DNA of 64,000 bases from an uncultured Gammaproteobacteria bacterium (GCA_964402565.1 CAYOCJ010000001.1:416079-480078); one strand, 5' to 3'. Counted from the first letter of the stretch, positions 853 to 11,567 are shown. Numbers and translations: made by a program. Notes: generated from the letters alone by a model not told the origin.

Positions 853-886
853 AAAAATACCACCAACTGAAGTTGATGGTATTTTT
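853..886 (+). terminator. intrinsic terminator after pyrG (A-tract/15-bp stem/T-tract, bidirectional-type)
   Basis: aaaaataccaccaac-tgaa-gttgatggtattttt is an inverted repeat with one mismatch. It ends in a T-run 20 nt after the pyrG stop. Confidence 0.55.
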
Positions 887-1026
887 CATGGCTGGCTTGG
901 AGGGACTATGTACGAACTGTTAGATGGGAGGACATGTTCCCTTATCCGAGCGTAGATTTGCAGCAGATGCAGGATTTACTGACGCTTGCTCGCTAATATC
1001 GTAGCATTTTCAAGCCCTTCTTGGGT

Positions 1027-1054
1027 AGGCGCTCAATGCGCCGATTTTTTATTT
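1027..1054 (+). terminator. GC hairpin + T-run (second terminator-like element in pyrG-distal noncoding region)
   Basis: ggcgc-tcaat-gcgcc followed by gattttttatttt. It sits ~190 bp downstream of the pyrG stop and no convincing CDS lies between. Confidence 0.4.
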
Positions 1055-1355
1055 TGGGTGGTGGGTGTATGGGAATCGCGCCCGCGACTTTTCGCGGGGA
1101 CACCCTCACCAAGTTGGTATATTCCTGGGCTAAACCTTTCTTAGCTATAGGTATAGGTAATACAAAAGGGTGTATACGGATTGTAAGTGAATAGCATGGG
1201 AGTAGTAACAAAATAACTGCATGCTATCCAATACTACATGTATGTATCTGTCTTTTCATGTCGATTGATAACAAAAAACATGAAGTAGCATGACAAGGGG
1301 GTATCACCCTGTCTCTCTTGCAGAGTTTCGGCAGAGGAAAGTCAGAGCTTGCAGA

Positions 1356-1808
1356 CTAACTCCGCTTGGCTTGTTCTTTCTTCAGTCGTCGCCAGTCGTA
1401 GAAATCTATCTTCTTATTCTCTTCAACAAGAAAGACGTAGAGGTTTAGCTTATCTGCAACATTATAAGGCAACCGTCTTACTATCAAATCACGGAAGTTA
1501 GCTGGGAATCCGACACCGTATTTATAGCCGTATTTGTAGCCACGCTTTCCATCACTCTTCATCCGAGTGATTATTTGTCCAAGTGCCAGGTTGAAGTTTA
1601 CTTCACGATGCGAACGTGGATATTTCGCAGTTTTTGAAGCGTCACCCTTACACTCAATAAGCCAGTAGCGAGCGAACTTGTTGTTCCGCACTTTGATGTC
1701 CACGCCGTGCTCAGTCAGACCTTTACTTCGAAGGTTTCGGCTCCATCCTTTTCTGAATAGATACTCAATGATGTTGTCTTGAACAAACTTTTCTGTGAGT
1801 AATTTCAT
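1356..1808 (-). CDS. standalone PD-(D/E)xK nuclease-domain protein resembling the HsdR N-terminal (Mrr-cat-like) domain
   Basis: 150 aa. GVDIKV ... LIECKGD matches the D...ExK catalytic core. The N-terminal xxL(F)RKGW motif parallels LLQKSGW at the N-terminus of the adjacent HsdR. There is a 5-nt gap to the upstream hsdMS stop, so it is probably co-transcribed. Confidence 0.6.
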   Translation of the reverse strand: MKLLTEKFVQDNIIEYLFRKGWSRNLRSKGLTEHGVDIKVRNNKFARYWLIECKGDASKTAKYPRSHREVNFNLALGQIITRMKSDGKRGYKYGYKYGVGFPANFRDLIVRRLPYNVADKLNLYVFLVEENKKIDFYDWRRLKKEQAKRS

Positions 1809-1813
1809 GGTAA

Positions 1814-9209: not shown

Positions 9210-9331
9210 CCCCATGTAAGTTATGTTCTTTGCACCTTGATAACTGGACTTGCCACAACCTGCCATAGTGCTATACTTATATTGCTACCTACAAGTTTGA
9301 ATATGTGCACGGGGTCTCTGCTTTTTTAGCT

Positions 9332-9395
9332 CCAATTGTGGGCGAAAAGGGGCAGTCGAGACCTCCGCAATTGGTTGCCTCGTGCAATTCAATCT
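9332..9395. promoter_or_regulatory. repeated CAATTG-type motifs / imperfect inverted repeat in the 260-bp intergenic region upstream of the recombinase gene pair
   Basis: ccaattgtgg (9332-9341) and ccgcaattgg (9365-9374) form a 10-bp imperfect inverted repeat. A third tgcaattcaat copy follows. This is a candidate operator or recombination site. Confidence 0.3.
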
Positions 9396-9469
9396 TGTGG
9401 GTAGCAGGCTCCTCGGCTGTCCCTTTTCGTGTTTATAAATAACCAGGGACGGGTCGGAGCGAATAAGTT

Positions 9470-9949
9470 ATGGCAACGCTACCACCCACATGCACGTCTC
9501 ACGGATACAAAGATAGCTCTGGAAAAACCCAGGTCGTGTTTAGTTCGGATTGCTACTATCCAGGAAGTAACTGCATCCTCACAAACGACCAGTGTGTCTC
9601 TACATTCAAAGAAACTGGTTGCAAGGGTGGAGATGGACAGTATGCGTGTGCGCAAGCCTATTACCTCAAGCAACAAAGCCAGGTAAAGCCACAAGCTCAA
9701 CCTGTGATAATTACAAATACTGGTCAAGAAAATGCGGAGTTGAAAACACAACTTCAAGAAATGCAGAAACAAATCGAGACGTTACAGTCAAAACAAGCTA
9801 CGGCTACCACAACGGTGCCGCCAGCCCAAACTACACCCCTATTTGAAAACCCAGTCGTTCCATATTCGATTTTGGGAATACTCATAGTAGGAATCGTGGT
9901 GTTGATGAAGATGAAAATCATTACAATCTCATCTAACAAACAACCATGA
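9470..9949 (+). CDS. Cys-rich, coiled-coil, C-terminally membrane-anchored hypothetical protein, translationally coupled to the serine recombinase
   Basis: 159 aa with 8 Cys in the first 60 residues, a Q/T-rich coiled coil and a C-terminal TM helix (ILGILIVGIVVLM). The stop overlaps the recombinase ATG (ATGA). Confidence 0.5.
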   Translation: MATLPPTCTSHGYKDSSGKTQVVFSSDCYYPGSNCILTNDQCVSTFKETGCKGGDGQYACAQAYYLKQQSQVKPQAQPVIITNTGQENAELKTQLQEMQKQIETLQSKQATATTTVPPAQTTPLFENPVVPYSILGILIVGIVVLMKMKIITISSNKQP

Positions 9950-11526
9950 CTATAAATAAACCAAAAGCAATAATTTACTGCCGAGTGTCTTCGAAAGAGC
10001 AAGAGACAGGCTATTCTCTCGACGCACAGGAAAAACTTTTGACTGATTACGCAAAAGATAAGTTTGCTATTGTCGGTAAGTCTTATCGTATTTCCGAATC
10101 AGCGAGTGGTAAGCAGATTCGAAAAAAGTTCAACGAGATGATGTCTGATGTGCGAAAAAGTAAAATCCCTGTGATTCTCTGCGAAAAGACAGACCGCCTC
10201 ACGCGCAACATGAAAGATGCGCTCGGCATTAGCGAGTGGCTTCAGGAAGATGCCAGCCATGCTGTTCATTTCGTCAAAGAGAACTTTATAGCAAACCGAG
10301 AGACAAAAGCCCACGAGAACCTCGTTTGGGATATGAAGGTCGCCATAGCCAAGTTCTACAGCCAAAACCTCTCTGAAGAGGTCAAGAAGGGGCAAAAAGA
10401 GATGCTGGCGCAAGGCAGGTTCCCAACAAAGGCACCCATAGGGTACATGACCATTGGTGAAGAGGGACACAAGACGCACGTACTCAATCCAGAAACTGCA
10501 CCATTGATAAAGCAAATGTTTGAGTGGTATGCGACTGGGAACTACTCAATCATTCGCCTTGAAAAAGAATTGTATGACCGAGGTATCCGCACCAAGTCAG
10601 GTAAGCGATTCCGTAAGAGCAAGATTCACGTTGCACTTCAAGACCCGTTCTACATTGGCAAGATGCGCTGGCTTGGCGTTATTTATCCAGCAGTACATGA
10701 AGCACTTATAAAAACAGACTTGTTCGATAAAGTGCAGACGACTTTGCGTAGGCAAATCAAGAATCCAAAATATCAAAAACACAATCCGCTCTTCAGAGCA
10801 AAGATTACCTGCACTGGCTGTGGAGGTATGGTTACTTGGTATGAAAAGAAAGGACATTGGTATGGACACTGCAACAACAGTGATGCTTTCAAGAATTGCC
10901 CGAAGAAAACAGGAATACGCGAAGATAGAGTTGAACCACAACTTACGAGTGTTTTTGAAGTTATCGCTCCAAAGGATGAGCGTGTACTTGCAGCTATCGA
11001 GGATATTCTACGCTCTCAACATCAAGAGCGAATCAGCCAGCGCGAGAACGAGGTAAAACGTATTCAGGGACTTCTACAGAGCGTCCGAAAACAGAAAGAT
11101 AAGTATTACGAAGCAAAAATAAACCGCGAGGTGCCTACTGAATACTGTGAGCAAAAAATCTCAGAATGTACTACCGAGGAAGAATCATTAGAGAAAGCAC
11201 TTGTTGCCGTTGGCGATGATAATGATTTGTCGCTCAAAATTGGAATTGCTGTTCACGAACTCGCTTACAAAGCTGGCGAAATCTACCAAAACGCAAATGT
11301 GGATGCGAAGCGGCTGTTGCTCACTAAACTTTTTACGAACTTGCTACAAGATGGGCTTGAAATAAAGAAAGAATACACAAAAGCAGCTTCAATGTTGGTC
11401 GAGTGGGTTCCGAAACTAAATCGAGATTACGAACTCGCAAAACATCAATCACCAAAAGCATATATGCCTGCTTTGGCATCAAAATCTACTAATTGGCTGG
11501 GGGACAGGGATTCGAACCCCGATTAA
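9946..11526 (+). CDS. large serine recombinase (integrase/transposase-type)
   Basis: Resolvase catalytic N-domain with AIIYCRVSSKEQ (nucleophilic Ser), a recombinase domain, and a zinc ribbon (CTGCGG...HCNN). It has a C-terminal coiled-coil region. The last ~11 codons are antisense to tRNA-Gln. Confidence 0.9.
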   Translation: MTINKPKAIIYCRVSSKEQETGYSLDAQEKLLTDYAKDKFAIVGKSYRISESASGKQIRKKFNEMMSDVRKSKIPVILCEKTDRLTRNMKDALGISEWLQEDASHAVHFVKENFIANRETKAHENLVWDMKVAIAKFYSQNLSEEVKKGQKEMLAQGRFPTKAPIGYMTIGEEGHKTHVLNPETAPLIKQMFEWYATGNYSIIRLEKELYDRGIRTKSGKRFRKSKIHVALQDPFYIGKMRWLGVIYPAVHEALIKTDLFDKVQTTLRRQIKNPKYQKHNPLFRAKITCTGCGGMVTWYEKKGHWYGHCNNSDAFKNCPKKTGIREDRVEPQLTSVFEVIAPKDERVLAAIEDILRSQHQERISQRENEVKRIQGLLQSVRKQKDKYYEAKINREVPTEYCEQKISECTTEEESLEKALVAVGDDNDLSLKIGIAVHELAYKAGEIYQNANVDAKRLLLTKLFTNLLQDGLEIKKEYTKAASMLVEWVPKLNRDYELAKHQSPKAYMPALASKSTNWLGDRDSNPD

Positions 11527-11567
11527 TGGCTTCAAAGGCCACTGTCCTACCATTAGACGATCCCCCA
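11494..11567 (-). tRNA. tRNA-Gln (anticodon TTG), with encoded CCA
   Basis: Hand-folded cloverleaf: acceptor UGGGGGA/UCCCCCA, D-arm GUCU/GGAC, anticodon stem GUGGC/GCCAU with loop CUUUGAA, T-arm CGGGG-UUCGAAU-CCCUG, discriminator G, CCA. Confidence 0.85.

Follow-up and report, generated by a model that had tools for sequence, protein, structure and literature searches.

The window analysed here, a stretch of 64,000 nucleotides (nt) from contig CAYOCJ010000001.1 (416079–480078), contains a 10.6-kb integrative element lying between the CTP synthase gene pyrG, whose C-terminal part occupies positions 3–833, and a gene for tRNA-Gln(UUG). The element spans ~889/896 to ~11493/11500 and very probably belongs to a Patescibacteria-wide family whose large serine recombinase (LSR) inserts at the 3' ends of tRNA genes, here that for tRNA-Gln, and thereby splits its own gene. 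Homologues of the LSR, and of a 535-amino-acid (aa) protein encoded next to the tRNA, were found in genomes named Komeili-, Nomura-, Yanofskybacteria and similar, which assigns the source organism to the Patescibacteria (the Candidate Phyla Radiation or CPR). An earlier note, made from the sequence of the window, had described an AT-rich island beginning at 853, with a serine recombinase gene ending inside an intact tRNA-Gln. The features that define the element and its ends are given below.

848–891, no strand: chromosomal hairpin after pyrG, an inverted repeat with 21-nt arms that are 95% complementary
896–996, plus strand: piece displaced from the 3' end of the LSR gene; translation in frame from 889 gives WLAWRDYVRTVRWEDMFPYPSVDLQQMQDLLTLAR, followed by the stop codon TAA (994–996)
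1028–1052, plus strand: hairpin (1028–1042) and T-run resembling an intrinsic terminator
9946–11526, plus strand: open reading frame (ORF) of the LSR in the integrated state, 526 aa, with Resolvase and Recombinase matches and a weak Zn_ribbon_recom match
11464–11479, minus strand: hairpin and T-run inside the LSR coding sequence, with arms that covary in other loci
11494–11567, minus strand: intact tRNA-Gln(UUG), called by ARAGORN (ttg) and matched in Rfam at 65.6 bits

The recombinase, the boundaries of the element and its split gene

The insertion was traced by comparison with a related locus, L090, in which the gene order is pyrG, Peptidase_M10 and DUF1801 genes (minus strand, unrelated), tRNA-Gln(ttg), the 535-aa gene, with a product 88% identical to that of the window, and the same downstream genes. 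Alignment of the window with L090 by blastn covered 33–802 and then resumed from exactly 11494 onwards, so that 803–11493 are absent from L090. The window, L090 and a further locus, L093, part company immediately to the left of the TGG that encodes the CCA of the tRNA. The collinearity of L090, together with the divergence at the end of the tRNA, identifies the island as an insertion at the 3' end of tRNA-Gln, and the island described in the earlier note is thus real. Its low GC content was also borne out, being 42.3% for 896–11493 against 47.3% for 11494–64000, and lower than all 84 segments of equal size elsewhere in the 64-kb window, for which the minimum was 45.6%.

The catalytic domain of the LSR matched Resolvase (PF00239, E 2.3e-25, residues 8–158, including the sequence CRVSSKEQ) and was accompanied by a Recombinase domain (PF07508, E 2.1e-17) and a sub-threshold match to Zn_ribbon_recom (PF13408, 19.9 bits against a cutoff of 25.3). 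The protein matched PHROG 95 'integrase' at 1.3e-81, and residues R13, V14 and S15 as well as C289, C292, C309 and C318 were invariant across 34 LSR homologues. The structural model of a homologue contained long helices at 363–452 and its fold matched 9y66, 9dxh, PhiC31, Bxb1 and 4kis, while the sequence identity to solved LSRs was 12–18%. The ORF overlaps the tRNA by 33 nt, which are the antisense of the CCA end, the acceptor stem and the T arm; 516 of its codons are native, and the remaining ten (WLGDRDSNPD) and the stop are supplied by the tRNA in antisense, giving a protein in the integrated state with the C-terminus ...STNWLGDRDSNPD. ARAGORN, Rfam and the domain matches therefore agree with the earlier description of an LSR gene ending in an intact tRNA-Gln.

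The true boundaries of the element are marked by a 7-bp direct repeat, TGGCTGG, at 889–895 (attL core) and 11494–11500 (attR core). The proposed left boundary at 853 is accordingly moved to 889–895; the hairpin at 848–891 is chromosomal, forming the host-side flank of the left junction outside the element, and was probably, before the insertion, a terminator common to pyrG and tRNA-Gln. The sequence to the left of the core differs from locus to locus in the family. Ten other loci carried repeats of their own of 4–11 bp in the same register, each the antisense of the last bases of the respective tRNA. When aligned on the conserved segment these repeats have a common 4-nt register, represented in the window by GCTG at 891–894 and 11496–11499 and corresponding to tRNA positions C74, G73, A72 and C71. 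As this register is common to many loci, the crossover is placed at the extreme end of the tRNA, where the sequence suggests an exchange within positions 71–74 (GCTG). The identity between att sites is short, 4–11 bp at both junctions in 11 loci, and does not fix the exchange dinucleotide. A long direct repeat of the 3' half of the tRNA, as in tyrosine-type islands, was sought and rejected, since no second copy was present even with 3 mismatches. The lack of such a repeat would follow from a crossover at the very end of the tRNA, and with attB at the extreme 3' end of tRNA-Gln the tRNA stays whole.

The last 35 codons of the LSR gene (898–996) were found at the far left end of the element, 10.6 kb from the body of the gene. 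A hidden Markov model of the tail matched this displaced piece with an E-value of 2.9e-23 and 82.4 bits, on a par with the best in the family, and the segment 889–1005 was 74–82% identical at the nucleotide level to the left ends of L086, L008, L009, L016 and L018, where it lies 5.6–9.4 kb upstream of the LSR. With the two ends rejoined, the LSR frame continued through the core as ...STNWLAWRDYVRTVRWEDMFPYPSVDLQQMQDLLTLAR, with the stop at 994–996, and the junctions could be rejoined in frame at 11 of 11 loci, all yielding the same conserved tail. The rebuilt LSR of 551 aa aligned over residues 1–551 with P0066, an intact homologue of 552 aa; the intact homologues used for such end-to-end comparison were 551–557 aa long. 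Among the best 120 homologue clusters, 21 had the tail (mostly 551–557 aa) and 99 were without it (median 527 aa), at least 77 of the latter terminating in recognisable tRNA-antisense residues. In the AlphaFold2 (AF2) model of an intact homologue the tail formed three confident helices, with a predicted local distance difference test (pLDDT) score of 85–89, after a disordered linker that corresponds to the core region. In-frame rejoining and the presence of the tail in intact homologues place attP inside the LSR gene, so that integration splits the gene and the overlap of the LSR with the tRNA is not incidental. The hairpin at 1028–1042, corresponding to the second half of the double terminator of the earlier note, belongs to the element and closes off the displaced piece of the gene; in the circular form the terminator at 1028–1052 would end the full-length LSR gene. 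The predicted attP is ...CTACTAAT TGGCTGG CTTGGAGGGAC... and the predicted attB ...TATTTTTCA TGGCTGG GGGACAGGG..., with the corresponding synthetic junctions ...AAAATCTACTAAT-TGGCTGG-CTTGGAGGGACTATG... for attP and ...GATGGTATTTTTCA-TGGCTGG-GGGACAGGGATTCG... for attB.

These results show that the LSR recombined an attP situated towards the 3' end of the gene that encodes it with an attB at the very 3' terminus of tRNA-Gln(UUG). Integration left 516 codons beside the tRNA, reading into it in antisense, and moved the last 35 codons with the stop and the terminator to the left end of the element; excision would restore the gene for the 551-aa LSR. Judging by the shared register, the element would contribute only the last few, identical bases of the tRNA and a new terminator. 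The minus-strand hairpin at 11464–11479 would be this element-supplied replacement terminator for tRNA-Gln.

The two right-hand half-sites were compared, with the G opposite C74 as the origin for indexing the arms. On the host side, the B' arm is made up of the acceptor and T arm of the tRNA, with the T-loop CGAAC at 11513–11517, and the element-side P' arm of the first ~25 bp of the displaced piece, with CGAAC at 913–917. In both arms GG occupies index 12–13, with CGAAC at 17–21 in the tRNA arm and at 22–26 in the element arm. Identity between P' and B' over 11 loci peaked at offsets of +5 (50%, 72/143) and 0 (38%), on a background of ~25%. For the Listeria integrase, attB was shown to have its zinc-ribbon motif 5 bp closer to the centre than attP has (Rutherford et al. 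2013, PMC3783163), and the 5-bp shift observed here matches this LSR rule for the right-hand half-sites only. It is consistent with a zinc-ribbon domain that would read the universal T-loop (TTCGAA) on the host side and, on that of the element, a copy lying 5 bp further outward. Such reading of the T-loop would explain easy switching between tRNAs.

Gene content of the island and its relatives across Patescibacteria

Between the displaced piece and the LSR gene the island contains the following features.

1356–1808, minus strand: 150-aa ORF, the last gene of the cargo operon, with a weak match to NOV_C (nuclease-like)
1814–4231, minus strand: HsdM-HsdS fusion of 805 aa, N6_Mtase at 6e-55 and two Methylase_S stretches
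4234–6750, minus strand: HsdR, Type I restriction subunit of 838 aa, ResIII at 7e-40, HSDR_N, and PADLOC REase_I at 4.7e-56
6780–6965, minus strand: HTH_17 or excisionase-like protein of 61 aa, PF12728 at 1.4e-14 and PHROG 66 'excisionase and transcriptional regulator'
7043–7756, plus strand: 237-aa core protein, tandem winged-helix in a structure model (pLDDT 93)
7869–8111, plus strand: DUF5659 ORF by domain match, part of the conserved family core
8112–8270, plus strand: 52-aa ORF of the conserved family core, with homologues in related loci
8267–9209, plus strand: 199-aa and 104-aa ORFs, common to L022 only among the fetched loci
9250–9430, plus strand: promoter match (TTGCCA-16-TATACT, the best of the island) followed by a structured RNA of ~150 nt
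9470–9949, plus strand: 159-aa ORF whose stop overlaps the LSR start

The ORFs between pyrG and tRNA-Gln thus encode the HsdM-HsdS fusion, HsdR, the 150-aa protein and the 61-aa HTH_17 protein, together with six small ORFs. The cargo is a Type I restriction-modification (R-M) operon in which the HsdR, HsdM and HsdS functions are complete, PADLOC matching the product of 1814–4231 to MTase_I at 5e-101 and to Specificity_I; the product of 1356–1808 had a homologue at 83% aa identity in L077, a further LSR locus. A single polypeptide combines the methyltransferase with the specificity subunit both in the window (805 aa, 1814–4231, minus strand) and in L001 (832 aa, 933–3431). The earlier note had described defence genes and small ORFs with no other mobility genes; the first part stands, with the defence genes being the Type I R-M system, and the second does not, given the HTH_17/excisionase-like ORF at 6780–6965. 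This 61-aa protein is kept in 12 related loci and is a candidate regulator or recombination directionality factor.

A fold search with the 237-aa protein gave generic winged helices only, and from its modelled structure it may be a regulator or a replication initiator. The tandem winged-helix layout, seen here in the first gene of the conserved plus-strand operon, also occurs in plasmid Rep initiators and in many regulators. The 199-aa and 104-aa ORFs occupy the place of the primase (Prim-Pol/AAA_25 or Toprim) of the relatives. Searches of the small ORFs against PADLOC, PHROGs, NCBIfam and Pfam at relaxed thresholds gave no useful match.

The non-coding segment 9245–9430 (plus strand) was more conserved than the surrounding genes, with 79–90% nucleotide identity and counterparts in L008 (9424–9607), L011 (3268–3462), L085 (3800–3974) and L001 (9548–9721). 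It was 90% identical to that of L008, while the two LSRs are only 61% identical. A long helix was predicted for the segment (z-score -4.4), supported by 8 compensatory pairs among 5 sequences, with the RNA itself placed at 9284–9430, and Rfam returned nothing for it, even at E up to 1. From its conservation and predicted fold it is a candidate small RNA borne by the element.

A scan of species-representative genomes gave at least 541 relatives, from which 79 loci were kept, 69 of them with readable downstream sequence. The LSR ORF ended in the 3' end of a tRNA at 59 of the 69 readable loci. Forty of these had a plain minus-strand tRNA called by ARAGORN that overlapped the LSR stop by at least 13 nt, and the targets comprised nine species (Asn, Gln-CTG, Gln-TTG, Tyr, Ser, Leu, Glu, Arg and Asp). 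Allowing introns in ARAGORN added 8 loci, six of them labelled Thr-tgt, a label taken as a mis-assignment due to the position of the intron; the intron-containing targets were left unassigned. A test for the T arm plus S-element added 11 loci in which sequence of a group I intron comes after half of a tRNA. Most loci without a tRNA call thus had the 3' half of a tRNA at the LSR stop, with the anticodon loop broken by a group I intron, and Rfam Intron_gpI was confirmed in 6 of 6 loci tested. The notion that loci with no tRNA were exceptions within the family was therefore rejected. Intron-broken targets were seen in L017, L023, L025, L028, L033, L061 and 13 more loci, the LSR still adjoining the 3' half; standard tRNA finders miss such targets because the intron interrupts the anticodon loop. 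Group I introns in Patescibacteria tRNAs have already been described (PMC13011429).

The closest LSR, at 74% identity, was that of L001/L007, which also ends in tRNA-Gln, in the CTG isoacceptor and in another genomic context. The L001/L007 island is laid out like that of the window, with HsdM-S, HsdR and HTH_17, a protein of ~230 aa, small ORFs and the LSR, and adds a Prim-Pol/AAA_25 primase (Prim-Pol/PriCT/AAA_25 in L001). L086 and L089 have the same core with a Toprim primase, and as cargo PHP-SMC/AAA_21 or a Type III-like R-M system. Element sizes in the family are 7–11 kb. The presence of relatives with the same core at other tRNAs in other genomes supports the earlier view of a tRNA-targeted element. 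The segment 3–5780 of L022 corresponds to 4234–9209 of the window, with 88% aa identity for HsdR and 57% for the 199-aa ORF, while its LSR, situated at tRNA-Tyr, is only 52% identical; this sharing despite a diverged LSR indicates that modules and cargo are swapped between elements with different targets. Circular members of the family were also found. L095, a contig of 9,039 nt with a 55-nt terminal overlap, closes to a circle of 8,984 bp, and a second sample yielded L096, which is the same circle permuted, with 100% identity. Each holds an intact LSR of 553 aa with the core GCTC-GCTTGGAGGG, so that family members exist as circles with an unsplit LSR gene.

In L010 (11660–11755) the LSR is otherwise unsplit, and the Trp codon after the core, the first TGG of a conserved TGGAGGG, reads TGA; the conserved tail directly follows this stop, and a second tail piece lies 7.8 kb upstream (3832–3924). 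L073 (7225–11539) is a 4.3-kb element, 82–90% identical to L048, L051 and L058, which lies at a non-tRNA sequence, the target in those three being tRNA-Gln. All four diverge after GCTC, and the LSRs of this subfamily seem to extend only a few codons past the core.

The 3' flank of tRNA-Gln(UUG) is a variable hotspot even without an LSR element, being occupied in L090 (8256–9809) by Peptidase_M10 and DUF1801 and in L093 (3–1700) by Cupin_2 and a 468-aa ORF. The pyrG gene neighbours tRNA-Gln in L001 (11561–13851), L086 (11558–13318), L168, L190, L205 and L210, with either isoacceptor and in either orientation, the element of L001 and L086 lying beyond the tRNA from pyrG. Elsewhere the window holds a bacterial RNase P RNA (29731–30095, plus strand, 259.6 bits) and tRNA-Thr(cgt) (42738–42813, minus strand), which are ordinary housekeeping genes.

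Weighing of the alternatives

Several observations weigh against an active, self-splitting tRNA-end element or against parts of that reading. An exact empty site, with the pyrG hairpin abutting tRNA-Gln, was not found, and L090 and L093 hold other genes at this place. An exact search of Joint Genome Institute (JGI) metagenomes with the P' 29-mer gave no match, and L004, a contig of the same organism, continues unbroken across attL. No primase, replication or transfer gene was recognisable in the copy of the window, unlike L001, L086 and L089. GC is the sole dinucleotide common to the cores of most loci, and it is palindromic, which would be atypical for an LSR; the position of the crossover was itself deduced only from sequence identity. 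No clear mirror motif emerged when the P and B arms were compared, only a weak TTTCG in the hairpin loop that was not used, and as the left-hand arms have no clear counterpart the zinc-ribbon reading of the T-loop is put forward as a hypothesis.

A pyrG-based search for empty sites in metagenomes gave relatives that reached 69% identity at most and in no case had an LSR. Breaks inside the tRNA, with a 30-nt overlap, in public contigs of the organism were considered as a sign of excision and rejected. The breaks are due to a co-occurring strain, L091, which was present in the same sample with the same tRNA and a neighbouring gene 88% identical, and the attL contig is unbroken.

The rival that survives best, although unlikely, is that the element was inserted as described and is now an immobile, domesticated remnant, its tail-less integrase being unable to excise and the host keeping the R-M system. 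The missing primase or replication gene would fit such decay, as would the failure to find, in the sequences searched, either a circular form or an empty site of this copy, and archaeal SSV-type split integrases are regarded as inactive after integration. Against this, both 7-bp cores are intact, the 516-codon body is free of stops and the 35-codon tail scores as well as the best in the family. L022 has the same primase-less gene set, which argues for a variant rather than decay, and related circles exist.

That the element is a prophage or phage satellite, and not a plasmid-like integrative element, is considerably less probable. The LSR and the HTH gene do match the phage families PHROG 95 and PHROG 66, and three relatives are filed in IMG/VR. 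These three were, however, the only close relatives among 2.9 million viral contigs, the PHROGs search gave the integrase and the excisionase/HTH protein only, with no capsid, terminase or other structural match, the size of the elements is 7–11 kb, and the relatives carry primases and winged-helix proteins.

It is very unlikely that the segment at the left end is only the P' DNA binding site and is not translated. Its role as a recombination site would by itself require the first ~25 bp to be conserved, but the conservation extends over ~100 nt with protein-like substitutions and a fixed stop position. The tail is moreover contiguous with the LSR in 21 intact homologues, the rejoined junctions are in frame without exception, and the AF2 model folds it into helices. 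The least tenable alternative, an ancestral chromosomal cluster in which the overlap of LSR and tRNA is a coincidence of ORF calling, could draw on the proximity of pyrG and tRNA-Gln in several relatives and is almost certainly wrong, given that the region is absent from L090 with collinearity on both sides, that the same overlap recurs at 59 of 69 family loci with nine called tRNA species, and that its GC content is below that of every other segment of equal size.

If the LSR does split its own gene at the end of the tRNA, as preferred here, the split may, as a tentative suggestion that we hold to be rather doubtful, act as a built-in state switch. The 551-aa form would be made from the circle only and would integrate, while the integrated copy would make the tail-less form, either competent for excision, perhaps with the HTH_17 protein, or silenced; the helical tail of 35 aa would then be a determinant of directionality or commitment encoded across attP. 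Separately, reading of the T-loop by the zinc ribbon may let the family hop between tRNA species. If true, the family would be a natural model for giving serine integrases new targets, and also a candidate tool for the genetics of CPR bacteria.

Comparison with known systems

The earlier note had called a serine recombinase at a tRNA site unusual, which agrees with the survey of Mageeney et al. 2020, where 14 of 297 predicted serine-integrase islands lay at t(m)RNA genes and the targeting of t(m)RNA genes by serine integrases was described as unreported and in need of proof. Durrant et al., in their large survey of LSRs, make no mention of tRNA. Self-splitting integrases have been described for archaeal tyrosine recombinases of the SSV type, and no description of Patescibacteria elements of the present family was found in the literature searched, the coverage of which was incomplete, so that an earlier description is possible. 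The finding added here is a family of self-splitting serine integrases that target the end of tRNA genes, extending the phenomenon of the self-cutting integrase from archaeal tyrosine to bacterial serine recombinases and offering a testable route to the control of direction. Serine integrases are the main enzymes for the insertion of large DNA and their choice of site is hard to change. In this natural family of at least 541 relatives, one scaffold has been moved among at least nine tRNA targets, with what may be a readable rule, an element-side copy of the T arm of the tRNA in which the T-loop motif is offset by 5 bp. The mobile elements of CPR/Patescibacteria are barely described, and the family is a common vehicle of defence systems and a possible integration tool.

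With the canonical LSRs (PhiC31, Bxb1, A118/LI, SPbeta SprA and TP901-1) the window family shares the order of resolvase, recombinase and zinc-ribbon/coiled-coil domains, the fold of LSR-DNA complexes, short att sites with few bp of identity, and an outer motif, that of the zinc-ribbon domain (ZD), which attP has 5 bp further from the centre than attB. It differs from them in targeting the 3' terminus of a tRNA and in carrying attP inside the integrase ORF, so that the gene is split. To our knowledge, characterised LSRs use protein-coding or intergenic sites.

Islands inserted at tRNA genes by tyrosine integrases (tycheposons, pipolins and classical islands) resemble the present element in having the integrase beside the tRNA's 3' end, a variable hotspot, modular cargo, here R-M, and in the relatives a replication module. 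Unlike the situation in tycheposons, a replication module of its own (primase/helicase) is missing from the copy of the window, although present in L001, L086 and L089. The recombinases in the tycheposon study were tyrosine recombinases in 910 of 937 cases, and a few tycheposons carry LSRs. Islands of this type are flanked by repeats of partial tRNAs, the att motifs in the tycheposon study being ~40 nt, compared to 7 bp for the window element.

The placement of attP within a gene is shared with the integration-dependent immunity of mycobacteriophages, reportedly described by Broussard et al. in 2013, in which attP is said to lie in the repressor gene, the integrase is of the tyrosine type and integration swaps the C-terminus and so alters how the protein behaves; here the split gene is that of the integrase itself. 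The 'suicidal' tyrosine integrases of the SSV type (SSV1, pT26-2) have the att site in the integrase ORF, and the gene is likewise partitioned on integration. They too target tRNA genes, and their target specificity also varies widely within one family. The window element differs in being bacterial and not archaeal, and in using a serine and not a tyrosine recombinase, only serine domains having been found. In SSV-type elements both halves are inactive pseudogenes, whereas here 516 of the 551 codons, with all catalytic and DNA-binding domains, remain in one piece.

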